Shown piece by piece: positions 1-37,120 of a stretch of 64,000 bases of DNA. The notes beneath the pieces are model-generated. The model ran no database searches. It was given only the letters and a program-made list of their open reading frames with translations, and was not told the origin of the DNA. A program made the position numbers and the translations under genes. The DNA lies in assembly GCA_018902845.1 (NCBI GenBank), contig JAHIPV010000020.1, positions 74,810 to 138,809 on the forward strand, in the 5' to 3' direction. Within the stretch, counting starts at the first letter, position 1, and each line of letters opens with the position of its first letter. Origin of the DNA: Patescibacteria group bacterium (GTDB lineage Bacteria > Patescibacteriota > Microgenomatia > UBA12405).

Positions 1-152
1 ACCTCCATCGGTAATTAGAATTTCTATTCTTCCAGAGACTGACTTCGCTGTTGCTTGCTTGGGATAATCTTGAGAATTAATAGATTTTAGGCATTTGTTT
101 AATACTTTGGCTGAGTTGAGAGTTGGAATTACAATTGAAATGGTTGGATAGG
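1..152 (-). CDS. Glycosyltransferase family 2, N-terminal fragment. The gene starts at 152 and continues beyond the window edge.
   Basis: Reverse-complement translation of 152..1 gives MTYPTISIVIPTLNSAKVLNKCLKSINSQDYPKQATAKSVSGRIEILITDGG, a typical GT2 N-terminus. It is too short in-window to appear in the ORF track. Confidence 0.5.
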
Positions 153-761
153 TCATTTTTTAACTTTTATTAGCCAGTAACAGGCGTAATTTTTGAGTAT
201 TTTGGGTACTTTTTTTGAAAAGAGTTTGATTTTTTCAGCATGGAGACCAATGGCAACAGGGATAATTTTGTATTTTTTAAATTTTGATTTGATGAGTATT
301 TTTTTTAAGTCTTGGTAAGTATATTCCCTTTGGTGTTCTTGATATGGGAATTTTTTTTTGCCTGTGAAGAATTCTACAAAAACTCTGATTAATCTTTTTC
401 TGTTTGGTGTAGTTATCAACCCGATGCCGTTTGGTTTTAGAACTCGATAAGTTTCGTTTATGGCATTTAGATCATTTTTTGTGTGTTCCAGGGTGTGACT
501 GCTTATTAGTATTTCGAAGGTATTTGATTTGACATTGTTTAATTTTTGCCAATCCCCTTGTTTATATTTTATATTTTTAAAACTTTTGGGAATTCTTTGC
601 GCATAATATTCAATACCCAAACATTTTTTGCAATGTTTTGCCAGTTGTTTTGTTTTGCTTTTGTTACTGCTACCGATTTCGATTACATTTTTTTTGTTGT
701 TGGCGATTTTTTTGTATTCTTTTAGTAGAAGTATCCAATCGTATGAATTTTTTATTTTCAT
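153..761 (-). CDS. Class I SAM-dependent methyltransferase
   Basis: VIEIGSS glycine-rich SAM-binding motif and typical Methyltransf_11-like layout. It lies adjacent to a radical SAM gene and the GT genes. Confidence 0.55.
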   Translation of the reverse strand: MKIKNSYDWILLLKEYKKIANNKKNVIEIGSSNKSKTKQLAKHCKKCLGIEYYAQRIPKSFKNIKYKQGDWQKLNNVKSNTFEILISSHTLEHTKNDLNAINETYRVLKPNGIGLITTPNRKRLIRVFVEFFTGKKKFPYQEHQREYTYQDLKKILIKSKFKKYKIIPVAIGLHAEKIKLFSKKVPKILKNYACYWLIKVKK

Positions 762-762
762 T

Positions 763-2388
763 TTATTTAAAATCTTTGAGTTTGGAGAGGAATTTTAGGG
801 AGTATTTGGCTAGGTGGGTGAAGTCGTTTAGTGATCTTATGGAGAGGGTTTTTTTTAGTAAGAATTTTGGTGTTAAAACACCTTTGAAAAGAGATTGAAT
901 GAGTTGTATTTGTTTTTGTGATGAAATAGGAGATTTTATAACCGGCTGGCTCATGTCGTATTTGTCCCAATCTAGGGTAAGAAGCTTGTTGGCTTGTTTA
1001 AGCTCTTTAAAGAGTGGGGTGCCAGGATAAGGAATTAATAGAGTGGCTTGGATGGAATCGGCTAATCCGTCCTTGAATAACTGGCGAGCTAAGTTGAGGG
1101 TTTTTTGGGCGTCTGCTTCCGTTTCCCAAGGATAACCAATTATGATGGTAAGGTGATTTTCTATGCCGGCTTTCTTGGCCTTTACAAGAGTTTCTTTGAT
1201 ATCTGATACTTTAATGTTTTTATTGATTTTGTCTAAAGTTTTTTGATTAGCCGATTCAAGTCCGTATAGAATAAATCTGAAACCGGCTTTTTTCATCAGA
1301 TTAAACTCTTTTTGAGATAAAGCCCCCATTCTTAAATTACAGCCTAGTTTAATTTTTTTGTTAAAGCCCTTGTCTATTAGGCCATGGCAAAATTTTTTGA
1401 GCCAATCCCCTGTTGGAATAGTGCCGGAGTCATCAAAGACTTCTTTTATGTTGTAGTTTTCAATTAGATTTTGAATTTCTTTAAGGCTATGTTGAGGTGA
1501 AAAAGTTCGATAGGATTGGTTGGGAAAAAGTGTTGTCCAAGAACAGAAGGTACATTTTCCCCACCAGCAGTCACGGCCTGACATTATGTAGGCGCCGGGA
1601 GTGTATTTGAAGTTTGAATTGTTGTGGGTGTAGAGGTGGTTTTTGGTTAGAGCGCGATCGATGATGGGAAGAATATCTAGATTATGATTTTTTAGAGCGA
1701 ATTTACCGGAATTGAGGATTTTAGTATTGGTTTGTTTTTGGGGGGATCCTTCGACAGGCTCAGGATGACGATGGATAAGATTATGGTTTGATCTGAAATA
1801 AAAGCCCGGTGAGAGTTTGGTTCCTTTGGTCAGATGTTCTACTAAATTTAAGAGCATAAAGTCGTAGTCACCGCCGGTAAGGATGTAATCGACAGGAGAA
1901 TTTTTGAATGATTCAAGGGGTAGTGCGGTGACATGGTCGCCCATTAGGACGATGGTAGGCGTGTGTTGATTCCGATGGGATCTGCCAGAGGTGGACAGGT
2001 TGCCACGTCTGCGGGCGACCGCAAGGGTCGCCCCTACAAAAGAATTTGCAATAACAGTGGGTTTGTTGACAGAAAAAGCCTTTTTTATATCTTTGATTAT
2101 TTTCCAATGGGTTTTGATTACAGGAGTTTTGGTTTCTATGGCGATAAGACCGGGAGAGCGTTTGATTAAACGATTGAGCCATTGTTGGTATGAAAGTTTT
2201 TCTGCAATAGCGTCATCCCAAAAGACTTTATGGCCTTTGGATTTTAAAAGTGTAGCTGTATAAGCTGGAATGACGGGGAAAATAAAGTTTTTTGTGTTGG
2301 TCCATTGAAATTGGCGGTTTTGGGATAAAAAAGCAGTTTGGCTGTTTTTGTGAAGAGGAGGATAAGAGATTGAGACGGAAAAAGACAT
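763..2388 (-). CDS. B12-binding domain radical SAM protein. It carries two in-frame repeat insertions.
   Basis: Radical SAM cysteine cluster CWWGKCTFCSW and an N-terminal B12-binding-like domain. The ORF contains repeat copies at 1741..1774 (HRHPEPVEGS) and 1985..2057 (SFVGATLAVARRRGN). Confidence 0.7.
   Translation of the reverse strand: MSFSVSISYPPLHKNSQTAFLSQNRQFQWTNTKNFIFPVIPAYTATLLKSKGHKVFWDDAIAEKLSYQQWLNRLIKRSPGLIAIETKTPVIKTHWKIIKDIKKAFSVNKPTVIANSFVGATLAVARRRGNLSTSGRSHRNQHTPTIVLMGDHVTALPLESFKNSPVDYILTGGDYDFMLLNLVEHLTKGTKLSPGFYFRSNHNLIHRHPEPVEGSPQKQTNTKILNSGKFALKNHNLDILPIIDRALTKNHLYTHNNSNFKYTPGAYIMSGRDCWWGKCTFCSWTTLFPNQSYRTFSPQHSLKEIQNLIENYNIKEVFDDSGTIPTGDWLKKFCHGLIDKGFNKKIKLGCNLRMGALSQKEFNLMKKAGFRFILYGLESANQKTLDKINKNIKVSDIKETLVKAKKAGIENHLTIIIGYPWETEADAQKTLNLARQLFKDGLADSIQATLLIPYPGTPLFKELKQANKLLTLDWDKYDMSQPVIKSPISSQKQIQLIQSLFKGVLTPKFLLKKTLSIRSLNDFTHLAKYSLKFLSKLKDFK
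1985..2057. repeat. Family-A repeat (GNRA-tetraloop GC hairpin GGGCGACC-GCAA-GGTCGCCC with conserved flanks), intragenic in the radical SAM gene
   Basis: ccagaggtggacaggttgccacgtctgcgggcgaccgcaagggtcgcccctacaaaagaatttgcaataacag. Near-identical copies occur at 47437..47523, 48690..48768, 60124..60198 and 60380..60466. Confidence 0.9.
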
Positions 2389-2406: not shown

Positions 2407-3348
2407 TTAGGTTTGGCGGGGGGTGAAGGAGAGGGTTTTTTTGAGTAGGCCGATGATGAAATATATTCCGTAGTAGATATGAGTTGTGGGAATTGTTATT
2501 GTTCCGAGAATGGAAGCCAGAAGACCGTTTTTTTTGAGGAAACTAAGAAAGGTTAGGAATAATAGTAAGAGATAAGAAATTAGGGGTATCGCGTCAAACG
2601 CGACTGTGGAAAAAGGAAGGGAAAGTAAATAAACCAGAAAAAGACTGGGGAGGAAATAGCCCAGTCGAAGTGATGTTTGGGGAAATTTTTTGGCAAAGAA
2701 ACCGCGGTGGAGGGCGTATCTTTTGATTTGAGCCAGATGAGAATTAAAAATTTCTCGACGATGATGATAAACAACAATATTTGGATGATAGAGAATTTTT
2801 TTATTTAGTTTTTTGGTTAAATTTAGGCACAAAACCGTATCTTCTCCTGGCCAATGGTGGGTATCAAAGCCTTTTACTTTGTTGAAATCAGATTTTTTGA
2901 CTATTAAATTGACGGTTGGATAATCGTCGACGAATCTTTGTTTTTGGATACTGTTTCTATAACGGCCGGCCGCTCCACTGCCAAGCCATGACGACCAGAC
3001 TAATCCTGAAGCAATTTGCTTAATATTGTTATTGGGTGGAGTGAGACAGGGACCGCAAACAGCAGAGAGATTGGTGTTGGTGTTGAAAACCTTTAAAGCA
3101 TTTTTGAGCCAGTTTTTGTCAGGATAAGAATCGTCGTCAAGGAAAGCCAGGTATTTGCCTTTGGCCATTTTGGCTCCTAAATTTCTTTTTTGGGCCGGAT
3201 TGGCAGTCTTAGAAATTTTGTCTGTGATTACCAGAATTTCGAAATTTTTGAAGGTTTGATTTTTGAGATGAGATAAGGTTTGGGTCAGAAATTTATTTTT
3301 TTTGCGGATAGGAATGATGATGGAGAAGGAAAAATTGTGATTTTTCAA
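2407..3348 (-). CDS. Glycosyltransferase family 2 with a C-terminal membrane anchor
   Basis: IIIPIRKKN..LAFLDDDS..YHH GT2 motifs including the DxD-like DDD. There are C-terminal hydrophobic helices. Confidence 0.75.
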   Translation of the reverse strand: MKNHNFSFSIIIPIRKKNKFLTQTLSHLKNQTFKNFEILVITDKISKTANPAQKRNLGAKMAKGKYLAFLDDDSYPDKNWLKNALKVFNTNTNLSAVCGPCLTPPNNNIKQIASGLVWSSWLGSGAAGRYRNSIQKQRFVDDYPTVNLIVKKSDFNKVKGFDTHHWPGEDTVLCLNLTKKLNKKILYHPNIVVYHHRREIFNSHLAQIKRYALHRGFFAKKFPQTSLRLGYFLPSLFLVYLLSLPFSTVAFDAIPLISYLLLLFLTFLSFLKKNGLLASILGTITIPTTHIYYGIYFIIGLLKKTLSFTPRQT

Positions 3349-3444: not shown

Positions 3445-4245
3445 TTATTGTCCGGTGTTGATGCGGAGTTGGAGATCGGGGTTGAATTTCCATTTTCTCT
3501 TGTTGGAATCGTTATAGTATCTAAGAATACGCAAACGATAAAAAATTGCCAAAGTGTCGATAAATGTTTTGTAAATTGTTTTTAGCATTGAATTATGCAG
3601 ATGTAAATTATCAAAATCATAATTTAGTTTGATTGGTGCTTCATATATACGTTTAAAACCTAAATGTTTTGAAACGGCTAAAATTTCGAGATCAAAGGCG
3701 AAGCTTTTTACTAAAAGCCTTGGCAAAACTTTTTCCAATACTTTTCTTTTAAAAATTTTTACTCCTGCCTGCGTATCACGGATTTTGAGATTAAAGAGTG
3801 TGCGAGAAATGAGATAAACAAAGAAGCTGATGATTTTTCGATCAATTGGGTAATTAACAAGGGAAGCGGGGTGGCGTTTTGATCCGACTATAATATCGGC
3901 GTCATACCATTCTAAGTGTTCCAGAAGCATAGAAATGCCGTTGGGATCGATTTCCATGCCTGCATCTATGAAGGCGATGTAATCCCCTTTTGTTTTTGTC
4001 ATACCAAAACGAATAGCGTGGCCTTTGCCGTGATTGTGTTTGTAAGTGTAAATTTTTAGATTTTTGCGTTTAATTTGTTGGCAGATTTTGTATGAGTTAT
4101 CTTCGTTTTTGCCGTCCACTATGGCAATGATTTCGTATGGATAACGAATTTTTTGTAAAGTATTGTCAATGTTTAAAATATCTTTTTTGATGGTTTTTTC
4201 TTGCTTGTAGATAGGGATGATGATTGAGAGGAAATGGGTATTCAT
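3445..4245 (-). CDS. Glycosyltransferase family 2
   Basis: LSIIIPIYKQEKTI..IAIVDGKNEDNS..DADI GT2 signature. The start is placed at the internal Met (ATG 4243..4245). The upstream 22 codons of the tracked ORF are the repeat element 4266..4324. Confidence 0.7.
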   Translation of the reverse strand: MNTHFLSIIIPIYKQEKTIKKDILNIDNTLQKIRYPYEIIAIVDGKNEDNSYKICQQIKRKNLKIYTYKHNHGKGHAIRFGMTKTKGDYIAFIDAGMEIDPNGISMLLEHLEWYDADIIVGSKRHPASLVNYPIDRKIISFFVYLISRTLFNLKIRDTQAGVKIFKRKVLEKVLPRLLVKSFAFDLEILAVSKHLGFKRIYEAPIKLNYDFDNLHLHNSMLKTIYKTFIDTLAIFYRLRILRYYNDSNKRKWKFNPDLQLRINTGQ

Positions 4246-4258
4246 TTTATGTTTTATT

Positions 4259-5404
4259 TCATTTAATCGGGCGACCGCAAGGGTCGCCCTTACGAATGTA
4301 TTTCGTGGCAATTGCGGGGTGACAGAGTCGGTAAACGGCCAGAGTTTGGAGAGCGGTCAGTTTCCATGAAAAAGCCCTGGCTCTTTTTTGTCCCAGTTTG
4401 GAAAATTTTTGTCTTAATTTTGGACTGGTCATGAGTTTTTTTAGGGCCTTTTTAATACTTTTAAGGGATTTTGGATTAAAAAATACTCCGTTATAGTCCA
4501 TAATTTCGGCCAAACTGCTTTGAAGACTATAACAAACCGGGCAACCCGATTGCATAGCCTCTAAGGGGGTAAGACCGAAGCCTTCGGCAAAAGATGGTTG
4601 GCAATAAAAAGTAGCCAGATTGTAGATTTTGGCAAGATCCGGATCAGGAACGAAGCCGGTAAGTGTTAAAAGCGGGTGGTGTGTTTTTTGGAGCCAGAGG
4701 AGATCTTGGTTCCAGGGATGATTAATTACGTTTTTGCGAGTAGCGGCAGAACCAACTATAACAAGTGGGTATTTTAAGGATAAACAGGCCCTAACAAGAT
4801 TGGGAATGTTTTTGTTCCAATTGATATCGCCAACATAAAGAACAAATTTTTTTGGCAGTTTGTATTTTTTCCTAATTTTTTCTAATTCTTTTGTGTTTTT
4901 GATTGATTTAAAAATTGGATCGGCTCCGAGATAAATAGGATAGATTTGGTCGGTTGGATATTTAGTGATTTTGTGTATTGCGTATTTTGAGAAGTGTGAA
5001 TCTGTGATAATATAATCGACTTTTTTTAGACGATTTTTTTGGATTAGCCAACGGACATTACCTTTTATGCCGACTGGATAGTGTTTTTTAAATTGGCGAG
5101 GGATAAGATCGTGGACTGTGACTATGGTAGGAACGGTTTTTTGAGGTAGGGTTAGTTGAAAAGGATCGAAATAAGGATAATGCAATAAATCAAAAGTTCC
5201 AATTTTTAATTTTTCCCCCTTCGGGTGACTTCGCTTCGCTTCGCAATTTTTAATTAGTTTTAAAGACCAGGATTTATATTCGGGGTTGGTTTTTAGTTCT
5301 CTTTGGAGATATTTGACTAGATTTTTGGTATAAAAACCAACTCCTCTTTTGGAATTGGCATTTTTTGTGGGAGAGATATCAATAGCGATTTTAAATTTTT
5401 TCAT
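4259..5404 (-). CDS. Glycosyltransferase family 4 (GT1-fold, RfaG-like)
   Basis: C-terminal EGFGLTPLEAMQSGCPV motif of GT4. The start is placed at MKKFKIAIDISP (ATG 5402..5404), overlapping the upstream stop. The last ~8 codons and the stop are supplied by the GC-hairpin repeat at 4266..4324. Confidence 0.75.
   Translation of the reverse strand: MKKFKIAIDISPTKNANSKRGVGFYTKNLVKYLQRELKTNPEYKSWSLKLIKNCEAKRSHPKGEKLKIGTFDLLHYPYFDPFQLTLPQKTVPTIVTVHDLIPRQFKKHYPVGIKGNVRWLIQKNRLKKVDYIITDSHFSKYAIHKITKYPTDQIYPIYLGADPIFKSIKNTKELEKIRKKYKLPKKFVLYVGDINWNKNIPNLVRACLSLKYPLVIVGSAATRKNVINHPWNQDLLWLQKTHHPLLTLTGFVPDPDLAKIYNLATFYCQPSFAEGFGLTPLEAMQSGCPVCYSLQSSLAEIMDYNGVFFNPKSLKSIKKALKKLMTSPKLRQKFSKLGQKRARAFSWKLTALQTLAVYRLCHPAIATKYIRKGDPCGRPIK
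4266..4324. repeat. Family-A repeat copy spanning the GT4 3' end and the GT2 5' region
   Basis: Hairpin core 4269..4289 with a ...cgtggcaattgcggggtgacag tail. Confidence 0.85.
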
Positions 5405-6213
5405 TAATTCCAGTCGGTTTTTAGATTTATAGATCGTTTGGTTTTTTTTAGTTCCCAGAATTTGATAAAAGCGATGGGGAAACGAAGAGAAGAAAAATAA
5501 CAAAAAATAAAACCGGGAAATCCATCTACAAAGCCTTTGTGTCTAAAGTAGGTTAATAAAAACCAATGAATTGGTTTGACAAGAAAATAATTTAAAATAC
5601 TTAGAAAATTAATTTTGAAATCTTGATCAATTAATTCTTGGGCTATTAGGGTGGTGTAGCGATTGTTGCGTTCTATATAGCGTGAAAATGAATAATCGGC
5701 GTAGTGAAGAAGATCGTTTTTTAGACTGCTGATTTTTCCATTTATTTCTACTTGTTCGTGAACCGATTTGCACGGTAGCCAACCTTTATTATTTTTAAAA
5801 AATCTGATAACCGGATCCGGATATTGTCCGCCTTTTTGCAAAAATTCACCTAAAAAATAATTTTTCCTTTTTATCCAAAAACCGTTATAGGGAACTTTGT
5901 TTATTGGTCTTTTTAAAATATATTGAATTTCTTTTTTTAGTCTTGGAGTGACTCTTTCGTCTGCATCTAATTGAAGAATCCAACCACCGTTGCATTTGTC
6001 TATGGCTTTTTGTTTATTAATATGAAAAATGGCTTTATTGGCGGTTTTGATTATCTTAACCTTTTTGTAGTTTTTGGCAATCTGGCGAGTTTTGTCAGTA
6101 GAGTTTCCGTCAACTAAAATTATTTCGTTGACCCATTTTAGACAATCAAGGAAGTCTTTTATGTTGTGTTCTTCGTTGTAGGTGGCAACGGCGACTGAGA
6201 TAGTATGTTTCAT
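5404..6213 (-). CDS. Glycosyltransferase family 2 (paralog of 22223..23029)
   Basis: VAVATYNEE..ILVDGNSTDKT..LQLDADE GT2 motifs. The C-terminal region is shared with the 22223..23029 protein. Confidence 0.75.
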   Translation of the reverse strand: MKHTISVAVATYNEEHNIKDFLDCLKWVNEIILVDGNSTDKTRQIAKNYKKVKIIKTANKAIFHINKQKAIDKCNGGWILQLDADERVTPRLKKEIQYILKRPINKVPYNGFWIKRKNYFLGEFLQKGGQYPDPVIRFFKNNKGWLPCKSVHEQVEINGKISSLKNDLLHYADYSFSRYIERNNRYTTLIAQELIDQDFKINFLSILNYFLVKPIHWFLLTYFRHKGFVDGFPGFIFCYFSSLRFPIAFIKFWELKKTKRSINLKTDWN

Positions 6214-8085: not shown

Positions 8086-8104
8086 TTTGTTTATATTGAT
8101 TTAA

Positions 8105-13225: not shown

Positions 13226-13247
13226 AGGTTAATTATATATGTTTGGA

Positions 13248-14954: not shown

Positions 14955-15040
14955 GATCGATAAATTCTAAATTCTAATATCTAAATTCTAAATAAATTCA
15001 AAATTCAAATGTTCAAAATTTAAAACTAATTAAAATAAAT

Positions 15041-24730: not shown

Positions 24731-25663
24731 TCAAAAGTTTTTGGTTAGGCGGTTTAGTAAATGGCGAAATTTAATAAAGACTGATTTAAATATATTACCG
24801 GCTTTTTCATCAGCAAAATATTTAGCAAACCAATGACTATATTCATAGGTGGCCTGCTGACTGGCGGAAACAAATGATTCTTTGGGTAGATTTTTTTCTT
24901 TAAAGCCCCTTTTTTCCCAAATTCTTATATAAATAAGACATTCAGAAAAAGCTTGAAGTAGGGCAAAAACAAGTCCGTGAATACCGTCTTTGTATCCCTG
25001 AGAGGCAAAAAAACGGCTGTTGAATTCTTGGGTAGGTTTTAGAATAAAATCGGAAAGTTTAAGTTTGTGTTGTTTAGAAATTAATTCTTCCGCTTGTACT
25101 TTTGTATAACGAAGCATGCGGTTAAGATAACTGGTTATAGTGGGATAGTTGTTGTGTCTAATGGCTAGTTTTTCTGTGTCTAGTATCGTGATTCCATTGC
25201 CTTTTGTTTCAGGTTGACTGTGTATTTCTTTGTTCCATTTGACAGCGCCTTTTTTGAAAAAGCGAATTAAGTAGTCAGGCCATGAACCTGAGTGGCGCAT
25301 CCATTTATTAAAAACTATATTTTTTCTCGGGATTCTGACAAAATCGACATCGGTGCGGTTGGTAATTTTTTGAAGTTCTCTTTTGAGAGTTTTGGTAATA
25401 TATTCGTCGGGATCAAGTAATAGTATCCATTTTCCTTTTGCTTTTGATAGAGCAAAATTTCTGGCCGGTTCAACACATTTCATATAACGATGTTGAAAAA
25501 CTTTGGCGTTGTGACTTTTGGCAATTTCGACAGAATTGTCGTTAGAGTGCATATCTATAAGAATGATTTCATCGGCAAAATTTTTGACAGATTTGAGACA
25601 TTTAGAAAGATACTTGGCATCGTTGTATGTATTGATGATTACTGATATTAAAGGTTTGGGCAT
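24731..25663 (-). CDS. Glycosyltransferase family 2
   Basis: ISVIINTYNDAKYL..ILIDMHSNDNS..LLLDPDE motifs. Confidence 0.75.
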   Translation of the reverse strand: MPKPLISVIINTYNDAKYLSKCLKSVKNFADEIILIDMHSNDNSVEIAKSHNAKVFQHRYMKCVEPARNFALSKAKGKWILLLDPDEYITKTLKRELQKITNRTDVDFVRIPRKNIVFNKWMRHSGSWPDYLIRFFKKGAVKWNKEIHSQPETKGNGITILDTEKLAIRHNNYPTITSYLNRMLRYTKVQAEELISKQHKLKLSDFILKPTQEFNSRFFASQGYKDGIHGLVFALLQAFSECLIYIRIWEKRGFKEKNLPKESFVSASQQATYEYSHWFAKYFADEKAGNIFKSVFIKFRHLLNRLTKNF

Positions 25664-28945: not shown

Positions 28946-29067
28946 CGTCATTCTGAATGAAATGAAGAATCCCGAGGGGATCCTTCGCTACGCTCAGGAT
29001 GACGGTGTTTTGACCGACGGGATTGCCACGCTTCGCTTCCTCCAGAGGCGGACACGGCGCAATGACA
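28946..29067. repeat. Composite family-B repeat encoding the C-terminus of the PTPS-related protein
   Basis: cgtcattctgaatgaaatgaagaatcccgaggggatccttcgctacgctcaggatgacgg ... gggattgccacgcttcgcttcctccagaggcggacacggcgcaatgacaag. Confidence 0.85.
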
Positions 29068-30892
29068 AGATTAATAATAAGGTCCAAGAGATGAGAGAAA
29101 TTGTGTTTGAAATAGTTCTTATGGGAGTGTTTTTGAGTTTGATATAAATTTGATATTGGCCAGGGTCTAGTTTTAAAACCATTCGGCCCAATTCCGGTTC
29201 AATCTCGATTGGAATTTCTGAATCGTAATTATAGGCTTTAAAATTAGGGAAATACATTTGGGCTAAGGTAATGGTTGTTTTTTCTTTTAAATCAGCATTA
29301 AAAAATAGCCAATCGGTTCCTTTTTTTTGACCATAAATAGTACCCGTTGCTTCTGGAGTAATTTGGTCTATGATAAATTTGGCTTGAGATTTAGCGGCTG
29401 TGCCGGCAGTATTGGGAAGATAGTCGTAAATACCTGAGGTCATTTGATTTTGCCAGGCTAAGCCTGAAAATTTTTGGTCATCTGTTAATGGGCCTGATTT
29501 GATAGGGTGAAAATATTTTAAGTTAAAAAATAAAAGCAAGGGTATGATTATTGTTGTTACTATGATGAGGGGATCCTTCGGCAAGCTCAGGATGACAGTG
29601 GGAAGATTTGGGGAGGTGCGACGAGAGTTTAAAATAATATTGGAATGTTTTGAAATGGTTTTAAGGGAAGTTTTGGAAAGATTGAATGGTTGAAAGATAT
29701 GGCTTAGTATTTTAAAGGCAAATCCGGTGGAAATAGAGAAGAAAAAAACAGATAGATTTAGAAAGCGCCAGGGAAATTGGATTTTTTGAATTGGTGAAAA
29801 AATTTTCCATATAAAAACCGATCTTTCGTGAGTCATAAAGGCGGTAAAAAGGGCTAAAATGAAAAAGAAGAGAAAGAAAGCAAAGAGATTTTTGAGGGAT
29901 TTAAGCTTAGTTCTGATTTTAGACGAAAAGGCTATGACGGAAACAACCAAAACAATAGTTGGTAATATCCAGTGAAGATAACCTATCATAAACGACATTT
30001 GGTCTTCCTGACCCCAAACTGAAGGGCCGTCTCCCCAAAAATTGCTGATAAAAAGCTGTTTTAGGCTGGTGAAATGAACTATGTAGTTGTAATAGCCCTT
30101 AAACATTGAATCAATTTGAACCAATTTGGTTTCAAAGAGAACTGGTAAAGTATAAAAGGCAGCCAATCCTAAGCTCAACAAACCTGAACAGAATAATTTA
30201 AAGATGGTTGTTTTTTGCTTGAAGATATTTTTTAGGTTTTTGTGTTTTTGGAATAAACATAAAATGACCCAGAATATGGTAAGGGGGGCGAAAACTAAAA
30301 GCATTGGGTTGTGGGACAGCATGAGTCCAAGAATACTAAGGCTGAGTAAAAGAGTGTATTTTGCTGACGCTTGTTTTTTGGCGTCTATTAGTTTTTTTGA
30401 GGTATAAAAAATAGCAGGAAAGAAAGTGTAGGCCCAAGCTTCGTTCATGGCACCACGAACATAAATGTTTAAAGCGTGGTAAGGAGCGTAAGTATAAAAA
30501 AGAGACGAGACTAAACCGGCAACATTACCAAATAGGTAAGAGCTTAGAAGAAAGGCAAAAAAAGCAGATAACAAAAAGTGAAAAACAGCCGTAAGTTTAA
30601 CTGACCACATAAAAGAAATTCCCAGACTTCTAAAAATTTGGCCGACTATATAAGGAAGAGGTGGGTAAAAATTAAAAAGTGGATAGCCATAGGCGTAACC
30701 TAAATCCGGTGACCAGCGACAAGGGATTTGACCGTCTTTGATACATTTTTCCATTTCTAGCTGGCGAACCATTTGCATGTCGTCGTGCATGTTGTAGTAG
30801 CCGGGTTTTAGAAGGGCGAAGACGGAAGGTAGTGTAAGAATTAAAAGTAAGGTAAGAAAAAATGACTTTTTGTTGAGCAGTTTTTGAATCAC
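28994..30892 (-). CDS. Polytopic GT-C-like membrane protein, PTPS-related/DUF-type (paralog of 11546..13225)
   Basis: MHDDMQMVRQLEMEKCIKDGQIPCRW..GYAYGYPLFNFYPP block. The C-terminal 20 aa and the stop come from the composite repeat 28946..29067. The internal repeat 29569..29597 encodes ILSLPKDP. Confidence 0.55.
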   Translation of the reverse strand: MIQKLLNKKSFFLTLLLILTLPSVFALLKPGYYNMHDDMQMVRQLEMEKCIKDGQIPCRWSPDLGYAYGYPLFNFYPPLPYIVGQIFRSLGISFMWSVKLTAVFHFLLSAFFAFLLSSYLFGNVAGLVSSLFYTYAPYHALNIYVRGAMNEAWAYTFFPAIFYTSKKLIDAKKQASAKYTLLLSLSILGLMLSHNPMLLVFAPLTIFWVILCLFQKHKNLKNIFKQKTTIFKLFCSGLLSLGLAAFYTLPVLFETKLVQIDSMFKGYYNYIVHFTSLKQLFISNFWGDGPSVWGQEDQMSFMIGYLHWILPTIVLVVSVIAFSSKIRTKLKSLKNLFAFFLFFFILALFTAFMTHERSVFIWKIFSPIQKIQFPWRFLNLSVFFFSISTGFAFKILSHIFQPFNLSKTSLKTISKHSNIILNSRRTSPNLPTVILSLPKDPLIIVTTIIIPLLLFFNLKYFHPIKSGPLTDDQKFSGLAWQNQMTSGIYDYLPNTAGTAAKSQAKFIIDQITPEATGTIYGQKKGTDWLFFNADLKEKTTITLAQMYFPNFKAYNYDSEIPIEIEPELGRMVLKLDPGQYQIYIKLKNTPIRTISNTISLISWTLLLILSLRRVRLWRKRSVAIPSVKTPSS

Positions 30893-30922
30893 AAGGTTAA
30901 TTTTACTATATCTTAAGTTTAT

Positions 30923-32164
30923 TTAAATTCGTTTTAGTTTGTGAAGCAGATAATCATCTGTTAGTTGGGTGGAAGAAACAATTTCAAATGGTTGCATACT
31001 TTTTACTTCCCATACTGTTTCGGTTTGTGGCGGACGGTTTTTTGAGGCTATTAAAAACAGTATTTTCGATTTAGGATAATCTTCTATTGCCATTGGTGGG
31101 CATTTTTTTGTGGTTAGCAAGTATCTAAGATCGTAGGAGATGGTGTTACCCGTTATGGTTGATGCAACATTGTAATCGAGCGGACAGTCATCTTTTAGTA
31201 TTTCTGAAACTACTTTTTGCTGAATTAGATATGTCCAATCTTTGGGATGACCTTGTGGAGTTTGTGTTTTGTTTTTTATGAGAAATAACAAATTAAATAA
31301 AAGAGGGATTAAAATTAATAAATTTAATAATATTTTTTTGGAATAAAATTTATTTAAAAATAGGGAATAAAAATATAGGAAAGGAATTAGGAAGGGGAAA
31401 ATAAAATAATAAATAGAGATATCTGAACCTTTGTTTGATTGATTAAAAACAAAGAAAATTGTTTTTAGGTTATAAAAGGAATTGCGAAATTCAAAAACCC
31501 AAAAAGGAAGATTTCCAAGTAAAAAGGAAATAAATATGATTAATAAATGTTTTATTTTAAGAATATTGTTTTTATGTAAAATTATTATTAACGGAATTGA
31601 CCAAAGTAAAACACTGTAATGAAAACTAAATGCTATTCCAAAAATTGTTCCTATTAAAAAAAGATAGATAAGTTTTTTGCTTTTTAAGTATTTATCAAAA
31701 AAAATAAGTTCTAAGATTGCAAGTGGTATCAGAAAGTGTGGGTTCCAAAAAAAACGACTATGAGTGATCAGATAACTAGAAGTAGATAAATATAAAAAGA
31801 CAGAAATTGAAATAACAGTATTGGTTTTATTTTTTAAAAAGATGGCAAAAAGAATATAAAAAGAAAGTTCTATAATAATCAGCAATACTAGAATGGTAAC
31901 CGGATTCCAGTTTGAAATTATTCCTAATGTTGCAAGTATATAATAGTAATTTGGTCCGATAAAAAATCCTCTACCATCAAAGGTTTTTGAGCTTACCATA
32001 GGGCCGATTAATCTTGGTTTTTTGTTTTTTACCATGTTGTAAGTTTCTAAAAGGTGAAGTCCTTGATCCAAATGGAATGTCATTTTTTGTGGAAGTTTAT
32101 ATAAACGCAGGCTTAGATAAAGAATGCTTACCAGAAAAATGCTGATTAAAAAAGACTTTTTCAT
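30923..32164 (-). CDS. Polytopic membrane protein, GT-C-like (distant paralog of 34839..36362)
   Basis: It shares FIGP..YYY..FNPV..L block architecture with the 34839..36362 protein and has multiple TM helices. Confidence 0.4.
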   Translation of the reverse strand: MKKSFLISIFLVSILYLSLRLYKLPQKMTFHLDQGLHLLETYNMVKNKKPRLIGPMVSSKTFDGRGFFIGPNYYYILATLGIISNWNPVTILVLLIIIELSFYILFAIFLKNKTNTVISISVFLYLSTSSYLITHSRFFWNPHFLIPLAILELIFFDKYLKSKKLIYLFLIGTIFGIAFSFHYSVLLWSIPLIIILHKNNILKIKHLLIIFISFLLGNLPFWVFEFRNSFYNLKTIFFVFNQSNKGSDISIYYFIFPFLIPFLYFYSLFLNKFYSKKILLNLLILIPLLFNLLFLIKNKTQTPQGHPKDWTYLIQQKVVSEILKDDCPLDYNVASTITGNTISYDLRYLLTTKKCPPMAIEDYPKSKILFLIASKNRPPQTETVWEVKSMQPFEIVSSTQLTDDYLLHKLKRI

Positions 32165-32174
32165 TGTAGATTGA

Positions 32175-33905
32175 TTATATTTTTATAAGCAATAATGTGT
32201 CGGAGGCGGGTTTGGGGTGTTGTTGGACAATTTTTAGTTTTTCAAATTCTGTGGAAGGCAGTTTTAGGCGGGATTGGTTGATTAATAAATAGACTTCGTC
32301 GCCGTAATTTTTGGCATCTATTAATTTTTTAGGAATTTCGATTATGTTTATACCGATACCAAAAACGGTTAGCTGAGGAGTTTGGTCAGTATATATTTGT
32401 AAACCGTCTGGAAGAGTGCCAAAGTAGCCTTCGGTGCCAACTATGACATTGGTTTGGACAGCTCTTTGCTTAAGATAATCGGCTGATTGTTTAATTCCCC
32501 AACCTGAGGTCCAGTCTTGAATATAGCCGGTTTCAGTAGACGGAAGGTTTAAGTTAAAGGGTTGATAAGAAAATTGGTAGAGTCTGTAGAAGTTGGGAAG
32601 AAAAATTAAAAGTAAAATAATGTATATCCAACGGGATTGCCACGCTTCGCTCGCAATGACAGGTTTTTTCCTGAGAGATTTTTTTCCCGATTGATTGGGT
32701 TTAGGGTGACAAAGAAAGGGAGTAATCAAAAGACTGATTATGATAATTAATGGGGGAAGGGTGTAGAGAATGTAACGGGTGGTAAAAACTTTTGTAAAAA
32801 TAGCGTTGGCCAGAAGTGGAAGTATCCACCAAAAAGTGACAAGCAATAAGGTTGTTTTATTTTTTTTCTTGAGAGTAAGGATAAAACTAATTATTGTAAA
32901 AAGTAAAACCGGAAGAGAGATGAAATATTTATAGATAGTCCAAATGTCTAAAACGTGTGGCTTTAGAGGATCGAGGGGATGGTTTAATATTTCTTTTAGT
33001 CCCCAGATATAGTCTTTGTTGCGAATGGCGATCATATGAAATTGGGGGCCAAGACGGAGGAGATTGTAGATGCAGAAAGCAATTGCAAGAGTAATGAGGT
33101 TTAGGGTTAGGAGTTTAAAAACATCGGATTTATTCTTTTTGGGATCCTTCGACCCTTCGACTATGCTCAGGGCAAGCTCGCTCAGGATGACGGGTGTAGA
33201 CGCGGTAAAGATGGATAGGACAATAAAGAAAATGGCGGGAGATTTGGTTAGCCAGGCGGCGCCTAGGATAGCTCCTAATACTAATGAAAGATCAAGGCGA
33301 AGGAATAAAGATTGAAGTAGTGAAAGGTAAAGAGCCCAGGCGCCAAACATGGTTAATAGGGTGTCTGGAAGCGCCAAGCGGTCAAAGAAGAAGGAAAAAG
33401 GTAGAAAGACGTAGATTAAGGATGACAGGAGGCCGGAGTTAAAGTTAGTAGAAATGGTGTGGAGGATAAAAATCAAGGGGTTTTGATTCCAACGGGATCC
33501 TTCGACCCTTCGACTATGCTCAGGGCAAGCTCGCTCAGGATGACGTTGTGGAAGCTTGGAAGAAAGGAGACAAGTGGTGAGGAATATGGCAACCATAGTG
33601 CCAAGGCCAGCAAGAACTGAGAGAAGACGGCCGGCAAAAAGCGGATCTGAAAAAAAGGAAAGAATAGGTGTTGTCAGCCACATAAAAAGAGGTTGTTTGC
33701 CATCAGTAAGTGGTATAAAACGTAACGTTTCTACATTTTTTATAATTTGGGACCAGCGAATGTAAATAGCTTCGTCGGCAAAAACTGGGATGGAGGTTAG
33801 GTTTTGAAGGCGGGTTAGAAAGTATGTAGCAATTAACAAAATACTGATAATGATTTGTTTGTGGATTTTTTTCATAAAAAAAATTATTGTGCTATTGTCT
33901 CGCAT
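32175..33905 (-). CDS. ArnT/GT83-GT39-like GT-C membrane glycosyltransferase with three in-frame repeat insertions
   Basis: N-terminal VFADEAIYIRWSQII..DGKQPLFMWL motif. The inserts are at 32629..32663 (VIASEAWQSRW), 33141..33192 (VILSELALSIVEGSKDP) and 33489..33545 (RHPERACPEHSRRVEGS). Confidence 0.6.
   Translation of the reverse strand: MRDNSTIIFFMKKIHKQIIISILLIATYFLTRLQNLTSIPVFADEAIYIRWSQIIKNVETLRFIPLTDGKQPLFMWLTTPILSFFSDPLFAGRLLSVLAGLGTMVAIFLTTCLLSSKLPQRHPERACPEHSRRVEGSRWNQNPLIFILHTISTNFNSGLLSSLIYVFLPFSFFFDRLALPDTLLTMFGAWALYLSLLQSLFLRLDLSLVLGAILGAAWLTKSPAIFFIVLSIFTASTPVILSELALSIVEGSKDPKKNKSDVFKLLTLNLITLAIAFCIYNLLRLGPQFHMIAIRNKDYIWGLKEILNHPLDPLKPHVLDIWTIYKYFISLPVLLFTIISFILTLKKKNKTTLLLVTFWWILPLLANAIFTKVFTTRYILYTLPPLIIIISLLITPFLCHPKPNQSGKKSLRKKPVIASEAWQSRWIYIILLLIFLPNFYRLYQFSYQPFNLNLPSTETGYIQDWTSGWGIKQSADYLKQRAVQTNVIVGTEGYFGTLPDGLQIYTDQTPQLTVFGIGINIIEIPKKLIDAKNYGDEVYLLINQSRLKLPSTEFEKLKIVQQHPKPASDTLLLIKI
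33141..33192. repeat. Family-B repeat with an internal duplication, in-frame in the GT-C gene (a second copy is at 33489..33545)
   Basis: gggatccttcgacccttcgactatgctcagggcaagctcgctcaggatgacg. Confidence 0.9.
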
Positions 33906-33963
33906 TGGCGAGACACCTCACATTCGTGAGAGATTCCTCCGCTTCGGTCGGAATGACAAATTG

Positions 33964-34725
33964 TTAATTATATTTGCCTTTGAGATTGTTAACTAAGACA
34001 TTTAGGATTTCTTTGGCCATTTGGATTGATTCTTTCTTGAATCTTTCCAGATTATCCCCTTTTGTGGTACTGGTATCTTCGTTTACCCAAACAACTGGTA
34101 CTTCTTTGATTTTATATCCTTGTTTTTGCAGCATAAAGAGCAATTCAACATCGTAAGCAGAAACAGTCCAGCCTTTTTTATTTCTTTTTTGAGTAAAAAA
34201 AGATAATTTTGGGAAGATTTTTTTTACTACATCAGTTTTAAAAGCTTTAAAGCCACACTGAGTATCGCGAATTTTTGGGAGAAGAAAAAGACGGCGACTT
34301 GAAAGAAATACCAAGGTCATTAGCTTTCTTATTGCACTAAAGCTTTTTCTGGTTGTACCACGGGAACCGATGACTACGTCGAAGCCATTGTTAAAGTGTG
34401 GTAGAAGTTTTGAAAGCTGTGATATGGGCGTAGATTGATCCATATCGGTAAATAGAACCAAGGGATATCGGGCTTTTTTGAGCCCTACCAAAACAGCCGA
34501 TGGTTTGCCACCATGAGAAAGATTTATTATTTTAAAGTTTTTATGTTTTGCGACAAATTGTTTAATTATTTTTAGACTGTTATCTGTTGAGGCGTCATTG
34601 GCTATAATTACCTCCCATTTATATGTTTGTTTGGAAAGATAAGTATAAACTTCGTTTAGCACTCCCCTATTAAGATTTGATTCTTCGTTGTAGCAAGGAA
34701 TTATGATAGAAATTTTCAATTTCAT
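33964..34725 (-). CDS. GT2 polyprenol-phosphate glycosyltransferase (DPM1/ArnC-like)
   Basis: ISIIIPCYNEESNL..VIIANDASTDNS..FTDMDQS with a DXD motif. At 253 aa it is soluble and partners with the GT-C transferases. Confidence 0.7.
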   Translation of the reverse strand: MKLKISIIIPCYNEESNLNRGVLNEVYTYLSKQTYKWEVIIANDASTDNSLKIIKQFVAKHKNFKIINLSHGGKPSAVLVGLKKARYPLVLFTDMDQSTPISQLSKLLPHFNNGFDVVIGSRGTTRKSFSAIRKLMTLVFLSSRRLFLLPKIRDTQCGFKAFKTDVVKKIFPKLSFFTQKRNKKGWTVSAYDVELLFMLQKQGYKIKEVPVVWVNEDTSTTKGDNLERFKKESIQMAKEILNVLVNNLKGKYN

Positions 34726-34838
34726 ATTAATTAATTCTGGTTTTTATGGGATTCTTCGTCCGATCAATCGGACTCAGAATGACGGGTATTGGCTTAAAGA
34801 TGATGTTTCTTTGATTATTTTAACAATAATTTTGTTTT

Positions 34839-36362
34839 TTAATCTTTCTCACTTGGAGTCATAAGGAAAATTTTTATGTTGTTGACTTCCCATTGTTGGC
34901 GGATTTTGGCAGGGCCAAAGGCAGCAATATCCCAAAGTGGATCCCCTTCCGGGGTGCATTCCTGTTGCCAGGGTTCACAAATAACAAAAAGCTGATCAGT
35001 TTTTTTGTCTGCCAAAAGGTATAAGGGTAACTTTTTGAGATTAGCAATGTATCTGTATGGTGGATCGTAATTTTGTTTGGCTAACAAGGCTAGATTAAAT
35101 TCGTTTTGATTTGATTCTTGGGCGATTAGGTCGACTATTTTTTTGGTAGTTTGCAGTTGTTTGTTGGCGGAAAAGCGAAAAGGATTTTCCAAAATAGAAA
35201 GAGTGGCAATGATGGCCAAAAGTAATATGGCCAATAGTTTTATATAAAATTTTTGCTGGAAAAGAAAAGAAATGAAATTAGCCGTAAGCAAACAAACGAT
35301 GGGGAATAAAAAAGCAAAATAGTGATCGTAAATGTGCTGTTTATAAAGACCAAGACCCAAAATGCCTATTATTAGCCAAATATATAATAAGGTGAGAAAA
35401 GGTGCTTGTCCCCCTGCGGGTGACTGCGCTGACGCTTGTTTTCTTGTTTTTAAAAAAGAAAAGAGAAAACCAAAAAAAAGCAGGGTGGAAATTAGGCTTC
35501 CCCATATTTCGTTTTTGCCGGCAATGAGCCTGGTAATAATTTGTCTAAATAATGGCCAAATTTGAGGAATAGCCTTGTAGACTTTTAGGTTAACTGTGGT
35601 TTGCCTGATGGTGAAAAACTTTATGATAGAGTTGATGTTTTGGCCATTGTGTTTTATGTCAAAAAGAATTTGTGGCAAGAGAGAAAGAAAAAAGAGAAGA
35701 AGGGCATAAAGAGAATATTTGATGAATTGCTTATTAATTCCAACGGGATCCTTCGACTGGCTCAGGATGACGGAGTAATAGAAAAAATAGATGGCAAAAA
35801 CGGGCAGGAGTAAGAGGGCTAGGTAGTGAGAGTTTAGGCAAAAAATGAATGAAATGGATGAAAGAATTAAAAATTTATATTTTTTTTGAATAAAAACTTG
35901 ATAGATAGACCATATAAAAAGAAGTGAGAAAAAAGGCATGATATTTGGATTCCAGGAAAAACTACTGTATTTTATTATTACCGGTGAAATTGAATACAAG
36001 AAAGAGGCAATTAGGGCAGTGGGGTGGTTTAAATATTTTTTGGCCAACAGATAAATCAAAAAGGTTGTAGCTACTGAAAATAATGCCACCATGATGGCCG
36101 GTCCTACTGGATTGAAATTACTGAAAAGCAAAAATGGTGCCATTAAGTAGTAATAAAGAGGACCAAGATACATATTGCCAATTGAAGTTTGAGGGCCTAT
36201 GAACATTAGATCTCTTTCTTTTAAGAATTTAGCTACTAATACTACATCACGGCCTTGATCGCCCAAGAATTCCATGTAATCAGAAATTTTAAACAGACGA
36301 AGAAAAGCAGAGAGAAGAAGAATGAAAATAATAAATTTATTTTTTTTTAGTATTTTTTTCAT
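34839..36362 (-). CDS. Polytopic GT-C-like membrane protein
   Basis: Multi-TM protein with MEFLGDQGRDV..FIGPQTSIGNMYLGPLYYYLMAP. In-frame repeats at 35410..35450 (QSPAGG) and 35740..35773 (VILSQSKDP). Confidence 0.5.
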   Translation of the reverse strand: MKKILKKNKFIIFILLLSAFLRLFKISDYMEFLGDQGRDVVLVAKFLKERDLMFIGPQTSIGNMYLGPLYYYLMAPFLLFSNFNPVGPAIMVALFSVATTFLIYLLAKKYLNHPTALIASFLYSISPVIIKYSSFSWNPNIMPFFSLLFIWSIYQVFIQKKYKFLILSSISFIFCLNSHYLALLLLPVFAIYFFYYSVILSQSKDPVGINKQFIKYSLYALLLFFLSLLPQILFDIKHNGQNINSIIKFFTIRQTTVNLKVYKAIPQIWPLFRQIITRLIAGKNEIWGSLISTLLFFGFLFSFLKTRKQASAQSPAGGQAPFLTLLYIWLIIGILGLGLYKQHIYDHYFAFLFPIVCLLTANFISFLFQQKFYIKLLAILLLAIIATLSILENPFRFSANKQLQTTKKIVDLIAQESNQNEFNLALLAKQNYDPPYRYIANLKKLPLYLLADKKTDQLFVICEPWQQECTPEGDPLWDIAAFGPAKIRQQWEVNNIKIFLMTPSEKD

Positions 36363-36371
36363 GCTGACACG

Positions 36372-37097
36372 TTAGTGAAGGGCTTTCCAGAGGTTAATAG
36401 AGTCTATGGCGGCCTTTTTCATAACTTTGAAATCAGATCCACTTGATGAACCGTGTAAGCGAGGATAATGACCAATCGGGACTTGGGCCCATTTGAATCC
36501 AAGTTTTTTGATTTTGATTAATAGTTCGGTGCTGGTGATGGCGCTGTCAGTTTTTAGTTTGCCAACCTGGTCAATAACCTTTTTGTTAAAAAGTTTGAAG
36601 GCACAGTCAACATCTTTGACTCCATAGAAACCGAACCAGATAAAGTTCCATATTTTGAGCAAATTGGCGATAAGAATTCGAGTGTAAGAATCTCTTCTTT
36701 TGGCGCGATAACCCAAAATAACCTGGTAATTAGTTTCTTTTTGTTTTTTGATTAATTTTTTGATATCAGAAAAATCAAATTGGCCGTCTGAGTCGGTAAA
36801 AGTAATCCAGTCGTACTTTGAATTATAGAGGCCTGCTTTAAAAGCGCCTCCGTAGCCTTTGTTTTTGAGGTGATTGATGATTTTTAGTTTATTTCCGTGT
36901 TTTTTGGCGAGGATTTTGGCTTTTTCTAGTGTTTTGTCAGTGGAGCCATCGTTGACTAAAACGATTTGCCATTTTGGAGTTATTTTGTTTAAAACCAAAA
37001 CAGCCTTGTTAACAGTATTTTCGATGTTTTTTTCTTCGTTATGGCAGGGAAAAAAGACAGAAAGTTCAGGAATGATGTATTTAGCTTTGACTGACAT
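36372..37097 (-). CDS. GT2 polyprenol-phosphate glycosyltransferase (DPM1/ArnC-like)
   Basis: LSVFFPCHNEEKNI..IVLVNDGSTDKT..FTDSDGQ motifs. Confidence 0.7.
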   Translation of the reverse strand: MSVKAKYIIPELSVFFPCHNEEKNIENTVNKAVLVLNKITPKWQIVLVNDGSTDKTLEKAKILAKKHGNKLKIINHLKNKGYGGAFKAGLYNSKYDWITFTDSDGQFDFSDIKKLIKKQKETNYQVILGYRAKRRDSYTRILIANLLKIWNFIWFGFYGVKDVDCAFKLFNKKVIDQVGKLKTDSAITSTELLIKIKKLGFKWAQVPIGHYPRLHGSSSGSDFKVMKKAAIDSINLWKALH

Positions 37098-37120
37098 TAG
37101 ATAAGTATAAGATATAAAAT

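Follow-up and report, generated by a model that had tools for sequence, protein, structure and literature searches.

We analysed a 64,000-nucleotide stretch of DNA from a Patescibacteria group bacterium (hereafter the window; contig JAHIPV010000020.1 of assembly GCA_018902845.1, positions 74,810 to 138,809), whose left 37 kb holds a dense cluster of glycosyltransferase genes. The explanation that we favour, and hold to be reasonably probable from sequence and fold similarity, is that this cluster is a chromosomal cell-envelope glycan locus conserved in Shapirobacteria and Microgenomates, which would build a glycopolymer, probably wall-linked, by lipid-carrier-dependent glycosylation on the outer face of the membrane. 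The minus strand carries every open reading frame (ORF) from 153 to 40107, with short or negative spacers, and the block comprises twelve large polytopic proteins of the GT-C type, ten complete glycosyltransferases of family 2 (GT2), two of family 4 (GT4), one Wzx flippase, one radical SAM enzyme and one methyltransferase (Pfam and follow-up searches). An earlier note on this DNA had counted the same twelve GT-C proteins, and Pfam, paralogy, hhalign and AlphaFold2 with Foldseek bear this count out. Pfam likewise recovered the two GT4 genes it listed (4259 and 20969; genes are named here by their left coordinate), the flippase (27428), the radical SAM enzyme (763) and the methyltransferase (153). 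Of its eleven GT2 genes, ten are complete; the window edge cuts the eleventh, of which it keeps the first ~52 codons (1-156).

Contig JAHIMY010000028.1 of the Patescibacteria metagenome-assembled genome GCA_018895715.1 matches the window at 100% identity, and the source belongs to the Shapirobacteria lineage of Patescibacteria. Orthologue records bear the names Candidatus Shapirobacteria or Woesebacteria. Reading left of position 1 on that contig (locus L009, 11628-21626) added at least 10 kb of glycan locus to the span of 1-37100 first given, which is thus too short: the methyltransferase is followed there by a GT2 (354 aa) and a GT4 (384 aa), then by three radical SAM genes with a B12-binding domain, two further methyltransferases and another GT4. 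The locus totals at least ~47 kb and has so far four radical SAM genes with three methyltransferase partners. It is unusual for a single glycan locus to have four radical SAM enzymes, which suggests that its sugars are C-methylated or rearranged in some other way.

Seven of the twelve GT-C proteins passed a Pfam gathering score. PMT and/or PMT_2 were found in 6289 (6289..8085; PMT 27.2 bits), 8105 (8105..9898; PMT 49.7), 13248 (13248..14954; PMT 26.3, PMT_2 38.3), 15041 (15041..16792; PMT 24.3, PMT_2 46.5) and 34839 (34839..36362; PMT_2 38.9), PTPS_related in 11546 (11546..13225; 37.5 bits, cut-off 26.4), and YfhO in 17697 (17697..20048, 783 aa; 60.6 bits, cut-off 28.5). PMT_2 was below threshold in 9891 (9891..11549), 32175 (32175..33905; 25.4 bits, cut-off 26.1) and 30923 (30923..32164, 413 aa; 16.6 bits), and Pfam gave no match for 25770 (25770..27428) or 28994 (28994..30892). 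Other evidence ties these five to the set: 9891 is a full-length paralogue of both 8105 (E 2.6e-45) and 6289; 32175 aligned with the family profile over transmembrane segment 1 (TM1), the D-E loop and TM2-4 (hhalign probability 86%); 30923 is a paralogue of 34839 (blastp E 3e-14), which itself joins the profile of five paralogues at 97.8% by hhalign; 28994 is a paralogue of the PTPS_related protein 11546 (37% identity over 594 aa, E 2.6e-107); and 25770 was placed by its structural model. Hydropathy gave many hydrophobic segments in all twelve. The profile searches proposed earlier hence found PMT, PMT_2, PTPS_related and YfhO, and no ArnT model in NCBIfam, where no family rose above threshold for any GT-C or GT2 protein (the YfhO protein reached 28 bits against the PgfM2 equivalog, whose cut-off is 1500).

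The twelve proteins fall into at least five sequence-distinct families, and hhalign found no sequence link from the PMT_2-like profile to PTPS_related (30%), the 25770 family (13%) or YfhO (about 1%). A profile search of the PDB with the five paralogues returned noise only, with no solved PMT, so a fold comparison was needed. The AlphaFold2 model of 8105 (predicted local distance difference test, pLDDT, 84) shows that ArnT, STT3, AglB and ALG12 are as near to the PMT_2-like GT-C as PMT is, and AftA, AftB, AftD, EmbA and PimE were among the fold matches of the GT-C models. We conclude that all twelve polytopic proteins are GT-C-fold glycosyltransferases, not transporters. The assignment of seven of them as GT39-like fared less well. 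PF02366 (PMT, cut-off 22.7 bits) was passed by the four proteins scored above, 9891 reached 19.4 bits and the other seven had no match; for most, PMT_2 scores are similar to or above PMT scores. None of the twelve matched the C-terminal four-TM module of PMT in Pfam at E <= 0.01 (PMT_4TMC, to which MIR domains are added in eukaryotes). The PMT_2-like family of the window has instead its own C-terminal alpha/beta domain, in which the motif YLFYSKYPP is conserved. Our lesson is that protein O-mannosylation should not be read from a PMT/PMT_2 match.

After TM1, nearly all twelve proteins have a loop with an acidic motif. In five paralogues the residues D48, E49, Y54, A56, Y57, S58, T62, K64 and D65 (6289 numbering) are invariant, and D48-E49 are also invariant across 30 orthologues; the Lys-rich N-terminus places this loop outside the membrane, and the acidic residues may have a catalytic role. 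The motif had been claimed for seven proteins, but its quoted form occurs in five only: 32175 has FADEA, and 34839 (GDQGRD) and 30923 (LDQG) have a D-Q variant. Elsewhere the loop reads QDD/HDD, a D-D pair after TM1, in 11546 and 28994, an invariant H43-D44 in 25770 and, by eye, a single Asp in the YfhO protein 17697. The tandem array at 6289..16792 also differs from its first description, since it holds six GT-C genes and not five, and only two of its five junctions have overlapping stop and start codons (11546/11549 and 9891/9898), the others being gaps of 19-86 nt.

Protein 25770 belongs to a family that current domain libraries miss. Neither Pfam nor NCBIfam matched it, and 35 family members gave no meaningful Pfam match either. 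Its AlphaFold2 model is of high quality (pLDDT 89, predicted template modelling score 0.90), and its top Foldseek matches were solely GT-C proteins (DPY19, STT3, PglB, AglB, AftA and ALG12) at template modelling scores (TM-scores) of about 0.5; transporters, to whose families an assignment would have spoken against the glycosyltransferase interpretation, came up only near 0.1. In an exhaustive profile search the family came to 1329 cluster representatives, of which 608 matched at E <= 1e-30. The gene lies directly after the Wzx-type (MOP/PST) lipid-linked sugar flippase (27428..28879; Polysacc_synt_3 E 1.2e-45), with overlapping frames, in five of five genomes (the window and four relatives), and one family member, P0276 (1639 aa), bears an N-terminal Wzx domain 42% identical to 27428. 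This adjacency and the fusion, that is, five genomes and one fusion protein, suggest that the 25770 family is functionally coupled with the flippase, and an oligosaccharyltransferase or polymerase-like role is conceivable. As an observation apart, many members of the family (P0241-P0388) are 860-1160 aa long and start with a signal-anchored secreted domain of ~450 aa that has only a weak DUF3863/3lm3 match.

Candidates for the enzymes that would supply lipid-linked sugars number three rather than the two DPM1/ArnC-like GT2 first proposed: 3445 (3445..4245, 266 aa), 33964 (33964..34725, 253 aa) and 36372 (36372..37097, 241 aa, the first gene of the locus) are mutual paralogues that resemble polyprenyl-phosphate-sugar synthases. 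Among solved proteins, their best relatives are ArnC, GtrB (sll0501) and an archaeal DPMS, with E-values of 1e-12 to 1e-13; ranked first are DPMS 5mlz for 3445 (E 3.9e-13, with GtrB 5eke and ArnC) and for 33964 (E 1.3e-13, with GtrB and ArnC), and ArnC 9bhc for 36372 (E 1.5e-12, with GtrB and DPMS). Two form adjacent pairs with GT-C genes (36372/34839 and 33964/32175), and 3445 shares its conserved block with 9891, 8105 and 6289. The circumstantial argument that the GT-Cs use polyprenyl-(di)phosphate-linked sugars comes from these three GT2 and the Wzx in the locus; with candidate synthases adjoining GT-C genes, a mechanism that is lipid-carrier-dependent, as the earlier note had it, and extracytoplasmic is the natural inference. 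For the radical SAM enzyme 763, announced as B12-dependent, the radical SAM core stands (763..2388, 541 aa; Radical_SAM E 3.6e-16) and its best NCBIfam matches are B12-type families (HpnJ, BchE and HpnR), all below cut-off, but Pfam did not detect in it the B12-binding domain PF02310, which the three radical SAM genes just left of the window carry.

We then looked at how far this gene set is conserved, taking one genome per species, and obtained 80 loci with an 8105 orthologue. The chain 8105-6289-5404-4259-3445-2407-763 is complete in 43 of them, and most of the others are short or end close to the match; the same gene order in about 80 species-level genomes is not chance. Orthologues are mostly 50-67% identical to the window proteins, as opposed to 25-37% between the window's own paralogues. 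When orthologous groups were formed by single-linkage clustering at 42% identity, the group of 8105 occurred in 76 loci, that of 6289 in 71 and that of 9891 in 69, against 22 each for 13248 and 15041, and at least four further GT-C groups had no member in the window. Two architectures are common upstream of the core, either 15041-13248-9891 or a 15041-like gene followed by 11546 and 9891; the window mixes elements of both, plus YfhO. The right half of the locus was syntenic in all four relatives examined, in the order GT2, GT-C, GT2, GT-C, GT-C, PTPS-like GT-C, Wzx, 25770, then four or five GT2 broken by one GT4. A core of three GT-Cs, four cytoplasmic glycosyltransferases and the radical SAM enzyme is near-universal in the lineage, and the further GT-Cs are accessory and species-variable. 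At the strain level, copies of this DNA filed under seven assembly or read-set accessions do not differ over up to 21.7 kb, one 21-nt repeat unit excepted. Apart from that unit, differences in protein length among the copies are not indels but start-codon calls on identical DNA.

The titles of the 80 loci name nearly all of them as Shapirobacteria, Woesebacteria, Microgenomates or Patescibacteria, and some titles are evidently wrong. Many records of the locus (L011, L013, L014, L022-L025, L056 and others) go under 'uncultured Gammaproteobacteria bacterium', and there are one under 'Candidatus Methanoperedens sp.' and two under 'Candidatus Parcubacteria'; these are probably placeholder or mis-binned labels.

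Fold, gene content and conservation are results of the tools used; from these and from sequence similarity we infer the donors, the acceptor, the order of steps and the attachment to the wall. Cytoplasmic GT2 and GT4 enzymes would make a lipid-linked saccharide as primer, and the soluble ArnC/GtrB/DPMS-like proteins 3445, 33964 and 36372 would load polyprenyl phosphate with single sugars. The flippase 27428 would bring sugars on their lipid carrier across to the outer membrane leaflet side, where each of the twelve GT-Cs, with their five or more families, would add one defined sugar or linkage. Pairs of radical SAM enzymes and methyltransferases may modify the sugars, and the product, probably a wall-linked glycopolymer, would be anchored to peptidoglycan by a nearby protein of the LytR-CpsA-Psr (LCP) family. 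Its gene (40788..41822, minus strand; LytR_cpsA_psr E 5e-19), a candidate glycopolymer-to-peptidoglycan ligase by homology, lies 3.7 kb from the glycan locus. Upstream of the locus (to the right in window coordinates) are an M23 peptidase, FtsX and FtsE and then this LCP gene, with a sortase at 58030; the LCP and sortase context points to a monoderm envelope. That twelve distinct GT-Cs are individually conserved suggests a complex fixed glycan, not Ser/Thr monoglycosylation.

Several observations weigh against this wall-glycopolymer explanation. Acceptor, sugar and lipid carrier all rest on homology. The three putative synthases have as best NCBIfam names PgfS, ArnC, PpgS and dolichyl-phosphate hexose transferase, far below every cut-off, and hydropathy gives them no TM helix, so that they are without the membrane anchor of GtrB and ArnC. 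Pfam found in the 64-kb window no initiating phosphoglycosyltransferase (Bac_transf, MraY/WecA-type), Wzy polymerase, GtrA flippase or nucleotide-sugar gene. The protein-glycosylating GT-Cs PMT, STT3, PglB and DPY19 are equally good structural matches, and an S/T/P-rich secreted protein is encoded nearby (44730).

These last two points lead to protein O-glycosylation, in which the PMT-like GT-Cs would move sugars from polyprenyl-phosphate donors to Ser/Thr of S-layer, pilin or secreted proteins, an explanation that we consider doubtful. Four proteins do score above the PF02366 cut-off, and the best NCBIfam names of the GT2 and YfhO proteins, PgfS and PgfM2, are those of the adhesin glycosylation system of Streptococcus mutans. 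Moreover, the protein at 44730 (44730-45530, Peptidase_C39_2) is anchored in the membrane at its N-terminus and has a linker rich in S/T/P/Q, SPNSQTQSFTPQTTGTPVSPSVTQPSLPQS; a scan of the flanking genes (37194-63932) showed no other obvious linker of the O-glycosylation type. Yet the PMT scores are marginal (19-50 bits), neither the C-terminal PMT model nor a solved PMT was recovered, ArnT, STT3, AglB and ALG12 are equally near by fold, and the PgfS and PgfM2 scores are 10-50 times under their cut-offs. Characterised monoderm relatives of the PMT_2 and YfhO type act on wall polymers (PMC8035078), and the number of distinct conserved GT-Cs together with the proximity of the LCP gene also speak for a glycopolymer. 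There is no direct evidence for a protein acceptor, which the earlier note had among its likely targets; such an acceptor is possible, but nothing in the data favours it. We find it unlikely, too, that glycosylation is en bloc, with Wzx flipping a finished lipid-diphosphate oligosaccharide, 25770 standing in for Wzy/WaaL/PglB as oligosaccharyltransferase, ligase or polymerase, and the other GT-Cs decorating the product. The position of 25770 behind Wzx, the Wzx fusion of P0276, the best folds of 25770 (DPY19, STT3, PglB and AglB) and the lack of a Wzy-type gene in the window would all fit. But the TM-scores are only about 0.5 and the matches include the single-sugar transferases AftA and ALG12, no STT3-type WWDYG motif occurs in 25770 or among the conserved residues of its family, and the window holds no initiating phosphoglycosyltransferase. 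The adjacency fits equally well a Wzx that supplies polyprenyl-phosphate monosaccharides, as proposed for GacK, the Wzx-type flippase of Streptococcus pyogenes (PMC8035078). Somewhat less improbable, though still rather unlikely in our judgement, is a bolder explanation, in which the locus of at least 47 kb would be a mycobacterium-like GT-C assembly line that polymerises a novel, probably C- or O-methylated heteropolysaccharide as a principal envelope layer of Shapirobacteria/Microgenomates, with 25770, coupled to Wzx, as a polymerase or ligase replacing Wzy/WaaL.

A different kind of explanation, put forward in the earlier note, sees in the paralogues a recent expansion that serves rapidly evolving, combinatorial surface variation or phage evasion. 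It could draw on the patchy accessory groups (13248 and 15041 in 22 of 80 loci, at least four groups absent from the window), on the two alternative upstream architectures and on the in-frame 21-nt tandem repeat of 6289, which differs by one unit between strains. We hold it to be very unlikely, and for the core it is largely refuted: the paralogues are only 25-37% identical, the core orthologues are one-to-one and in fixed order across about 80 species, and the DNA filed under the seven accessions is 100% identical save for the one unit. Since the repeat length is a multiple of three, it is unable to turn the gene off; we saw no element that inverts or shifts the frame, and GC content is uniform. 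We read the locus as an old, fixed pathway rather than as a recent expansion or a means of variation at the population level; on long time scales, the species-variable complement of accessory GT-Cs makes surface diversification possible. Finally, for the idea that the large membrane proteins are transporters or other non-glycosyltransferases we found no point in favour, apart from two of the twelve having no Pfam match, while PMT, PMT_2, PTPS_related and YfhO were detected; the idea is refuted at the fold level and practically untenable.

The remaining genes of the locus, all on the minus strand as are the GT-C genes, fit the same inventory. At the left edge, the GT2 cut by the window (1..156, first ~52 codons of 354 aa) was read through on contig JAHIMY010000028.1; next to it lies the class I SAM methyltransferase (153..761, 202 aa; Methyltransf_11 E 1.7e-12). 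The conserved core module ends with the radical SAM enzyme 763, whose orthologues are 47-67% identical and in the same position. It further holds a GT2 (2407..3348, 313 aa; Glycos_transf_2) with a C-terminal hydrophobic segment (hydropathy, 229-278) and orthologues mostly 53-70% identical (one 37%), the synthase-like 3445 (mostly 60-70%, 30-53% in the most distant loci), a GT4 (4259..5404, 381 aa; Glycos_transf_1 E 3e-24; 34-63%, mostly 45-63%) and a GT2 (5404..6213, 269 aa; Glycos_transf_2 E 5e-19; 41-64%, mostly 54-64%). Its GT-C genes are 6289, 8105 and 9891. Beyond the array lie three GT2 and a GT4: 16777..17670 (297 aa; Glycos_transf_2 E 7.9e-18), 20045..20965 (306 aa; E 1.4e-21), the GT4 20969..22147 (392 aa; Glycos_transf_1 E 2.6e-26) and 22223..23029 (268 aa; Glycos_transf_2 E 1.4e-14). 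Two more GT2 lie to the left of 25770, namely 23586..24626 (346 aa; E 7e-19), with in-frame repeat insertions at 24337-24423, and 24731..25663 (310 aa; E 5.5e-24), with one hydrophobic segment by hydropathy. We ruled out that the gap 23029-23586 hides an eleventh GT2; it holds a 91-aa GIY-YIG ORF (23183..23458, minus strand; PF01541), an interloper and no glycosylation gene, with composite repeat modules at its flanks (23067-23174 and 23468-23526). It is the one further ORF that the block contains, and may be a selfish element.

A horizontally acquired or mobile island was rejected because GC content is uniform along the window, neither tRNA (ARAGORN) nor integrase was found in it, and synteny extends across the lineage. 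The window also gave no Rfam match at gathering thresholds, and a consensus scan of 20000-39500 for promoters and terminators showed no enrichment over shuffles. Although 48 of the 51 window genes are on the minus strand, the GC skew of the plus strand is strongly positive throughout, up to +0.39 over the GT-C genes, so the coding strand is C-rich. Membrane-protein composition is probably behind this; alternatively, the genes could lie on the apparent lagging strand.

Several GT-C genes are interrupted in frame by short repeats. Three families of short GC-rich hairpin repeats occur in the window in 55 copies: GATCCYTCG...CTCRGGATGA (34), GGGCGACCGCAAGGGTCGCCC (10) and CCCCCTKCGGGTGAC (11). Inside ORFs, where 37 of the 55 lie, the reading frame is kept open, and nearly all have one orientation relative to the gene. 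Examples are found at 7376-7399, 9224-9238, 9380-9394, 10036-10059, 19040-19063, 29572-29595, at 33143-33190 and 33496-33543 (two internal copies of a 48-nt repeat in 32175), and at 35747-35770, 60421-60441 and 63427-63450. Protein 8105 has five segments that at least 80% of 30 orthologues do not have, and four of these bear the peptide signature of the repeats; for two of the four (aa 169 and 221) the copy was located in the DNA, and two coincide with low-pLDDT loops of the model. The same element can be read in two frames in different genes (AVTRRG and AQSPAGG). Gene 6289 (6289-8085) has four insertions plus, at 6921-7001, the 21-nt unit ACTTCGCTCGGGATGACAATA four times in frame (LSSRAKL x4), derived from repeat family A; GCA_022013015.1 has one unit fewer, the sole difference in 13.5 kb. 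Housekeeping genes (UvrC, an ABC ATPase and a tRNA synthetase) are also hit, which makes the repeats a genome-wide trait. They are reminiscent of Rickettsia palindromic elements, and we found no paper on such in-gene repeats in Patescibacteria.

Two further kinds of repeat lie between genes. An 8-nt tandem array, AGTCATCY on the coding strand, in four to five copies, stands just upstream of three starts (22145-22200, GT4 20969; 39356-39419, FtsX 38489; 48596-48659, DHH 47585) with a TATATAC-like box behind it, some 10 nt ahead of the ATG; together they may form a regulatory or promoter module common to these genes. In spacers directly behind stop codons (23030-23185, 24627-24735, 42893-43015, 54892-55232 and others) there is a common hairpin series, TGTCATCCCGAGCGAAGTCGAGGGATCTC, CCGC-loop-GCGG and TCTGAAATAAATTCAGA, which is similar to repetitive extragenic palindromes and bacterial interspersed mosaic elements (REP/BIME-like) and has no Rfam family match.

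The cell envelope is central to the episymbiotic lifestyle of bacteria of the candidate phyla radiation (CPR), and to our knowledge its composition is essentially unknown. A genome of about 1 Mb is typical for the group; if this one is of that size, the locus takes up roughly 4-5% of it, and its conservation in about 80 species-level genomes would make it a main determinant of the surface. What sets it apart is the density of GT-Cs, its conservation in a reduced genome and the presence of an unrecognised GT-C family. The window genes are already auto-annotated as carrier-dependent glycosyltransferases, and in the literature searched, on GT-Cs, mannosyltransferases and the envelope of CPR bacteria, Patescibacteria, Microgenomates and Shapirobacteria, we found no description of such loci; one Saccharibacteria paper merely lists mannosyltransferase annotations. 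The locus adds a concrete gene set for heterologous reconstitution, made of three conserved GT-Cs, four cytoplasmic glycosyltransferases, a sugar-carrier synthase and a radical SAM enzyme.

Among known systems, the closest in parts are the multi-component systems of Gram-positive bacteria, in which a GT-A enzyme makes a C55-P-sugar, a GtrA- or Wzx-type flippase moves it and a PMT_2 or YfhO GT-C glycosylates lipoteichoic acid, wall teichoic acid or wall polysaccharide (PMC8035078). CsbB/GtcA/YfhO, GtlA/GtlB, GacI/GacK/GacL, CsdAB/CD/EF and GtsABC share with the window locus, by predicted function, a GT2, a Wzx-type flippase and a PMT_2/YfhO-type GT-C in adjacent genes, and the wall-polymer-like context is alike, with an LCP gene near the window locus. 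The scale is not: in these systems each decoration has its one GT-C, and a genome has one to three such pairs, whereas we found twelve GT-Cs and three synthase-like GT2. The window locus also differs in that its GT2 are without a membrane anchor, it has no GacJ-like helper and no GtrA flippase, and none of its proteins reaches an NCBIfam cut-off. With the GT39 Pmt enzymes (yeast Pmt1/2/4; actinobacterial Pmt with Ppm1) it shares the GT-C fold, the D-E pair in the first extracytoplasmic loop, a weak PF02366 and a DPMS-like GT2, but the window family matches neither their C-terminal four-TM part nor, by sequence, the solved PMTs, and has its own alpha/beta domain with YLFYSKYPP. From ArnT (GT83), the undecaprenyl-phosphate-L-Ara4N:lipid A transferase, with ArnC the window locus differs in that no NCBIfam ArnT model matched, the window has no lipid A pathway gene and the context points to a monoderm envelope. 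In mycobacteria and corynebacteria, arabinogalactan and lipomannan/lipoarabinomannan are assembled by the GT-Cs Emb, AftA-D, PimE and Mpt. With polyprenyl-phosphate donors, these act one after another outside the membrane, on a primer that cytoplasmic GT2/GT4 have made on a lipid, and LCP ligation to peptidoglycan follows. There is no sequence-level relationship with the window GT-Cs, and the mycobacterial genes are dispersed, unlike the window's single operon-like block with its Wzx-type flippase. By fold, however, AftA, AftB, AftD, EmbA and PimE were all matched, and for twelve GT-Cs acting on one envelope glycan this assembly line would be the nearest analogy in scale.

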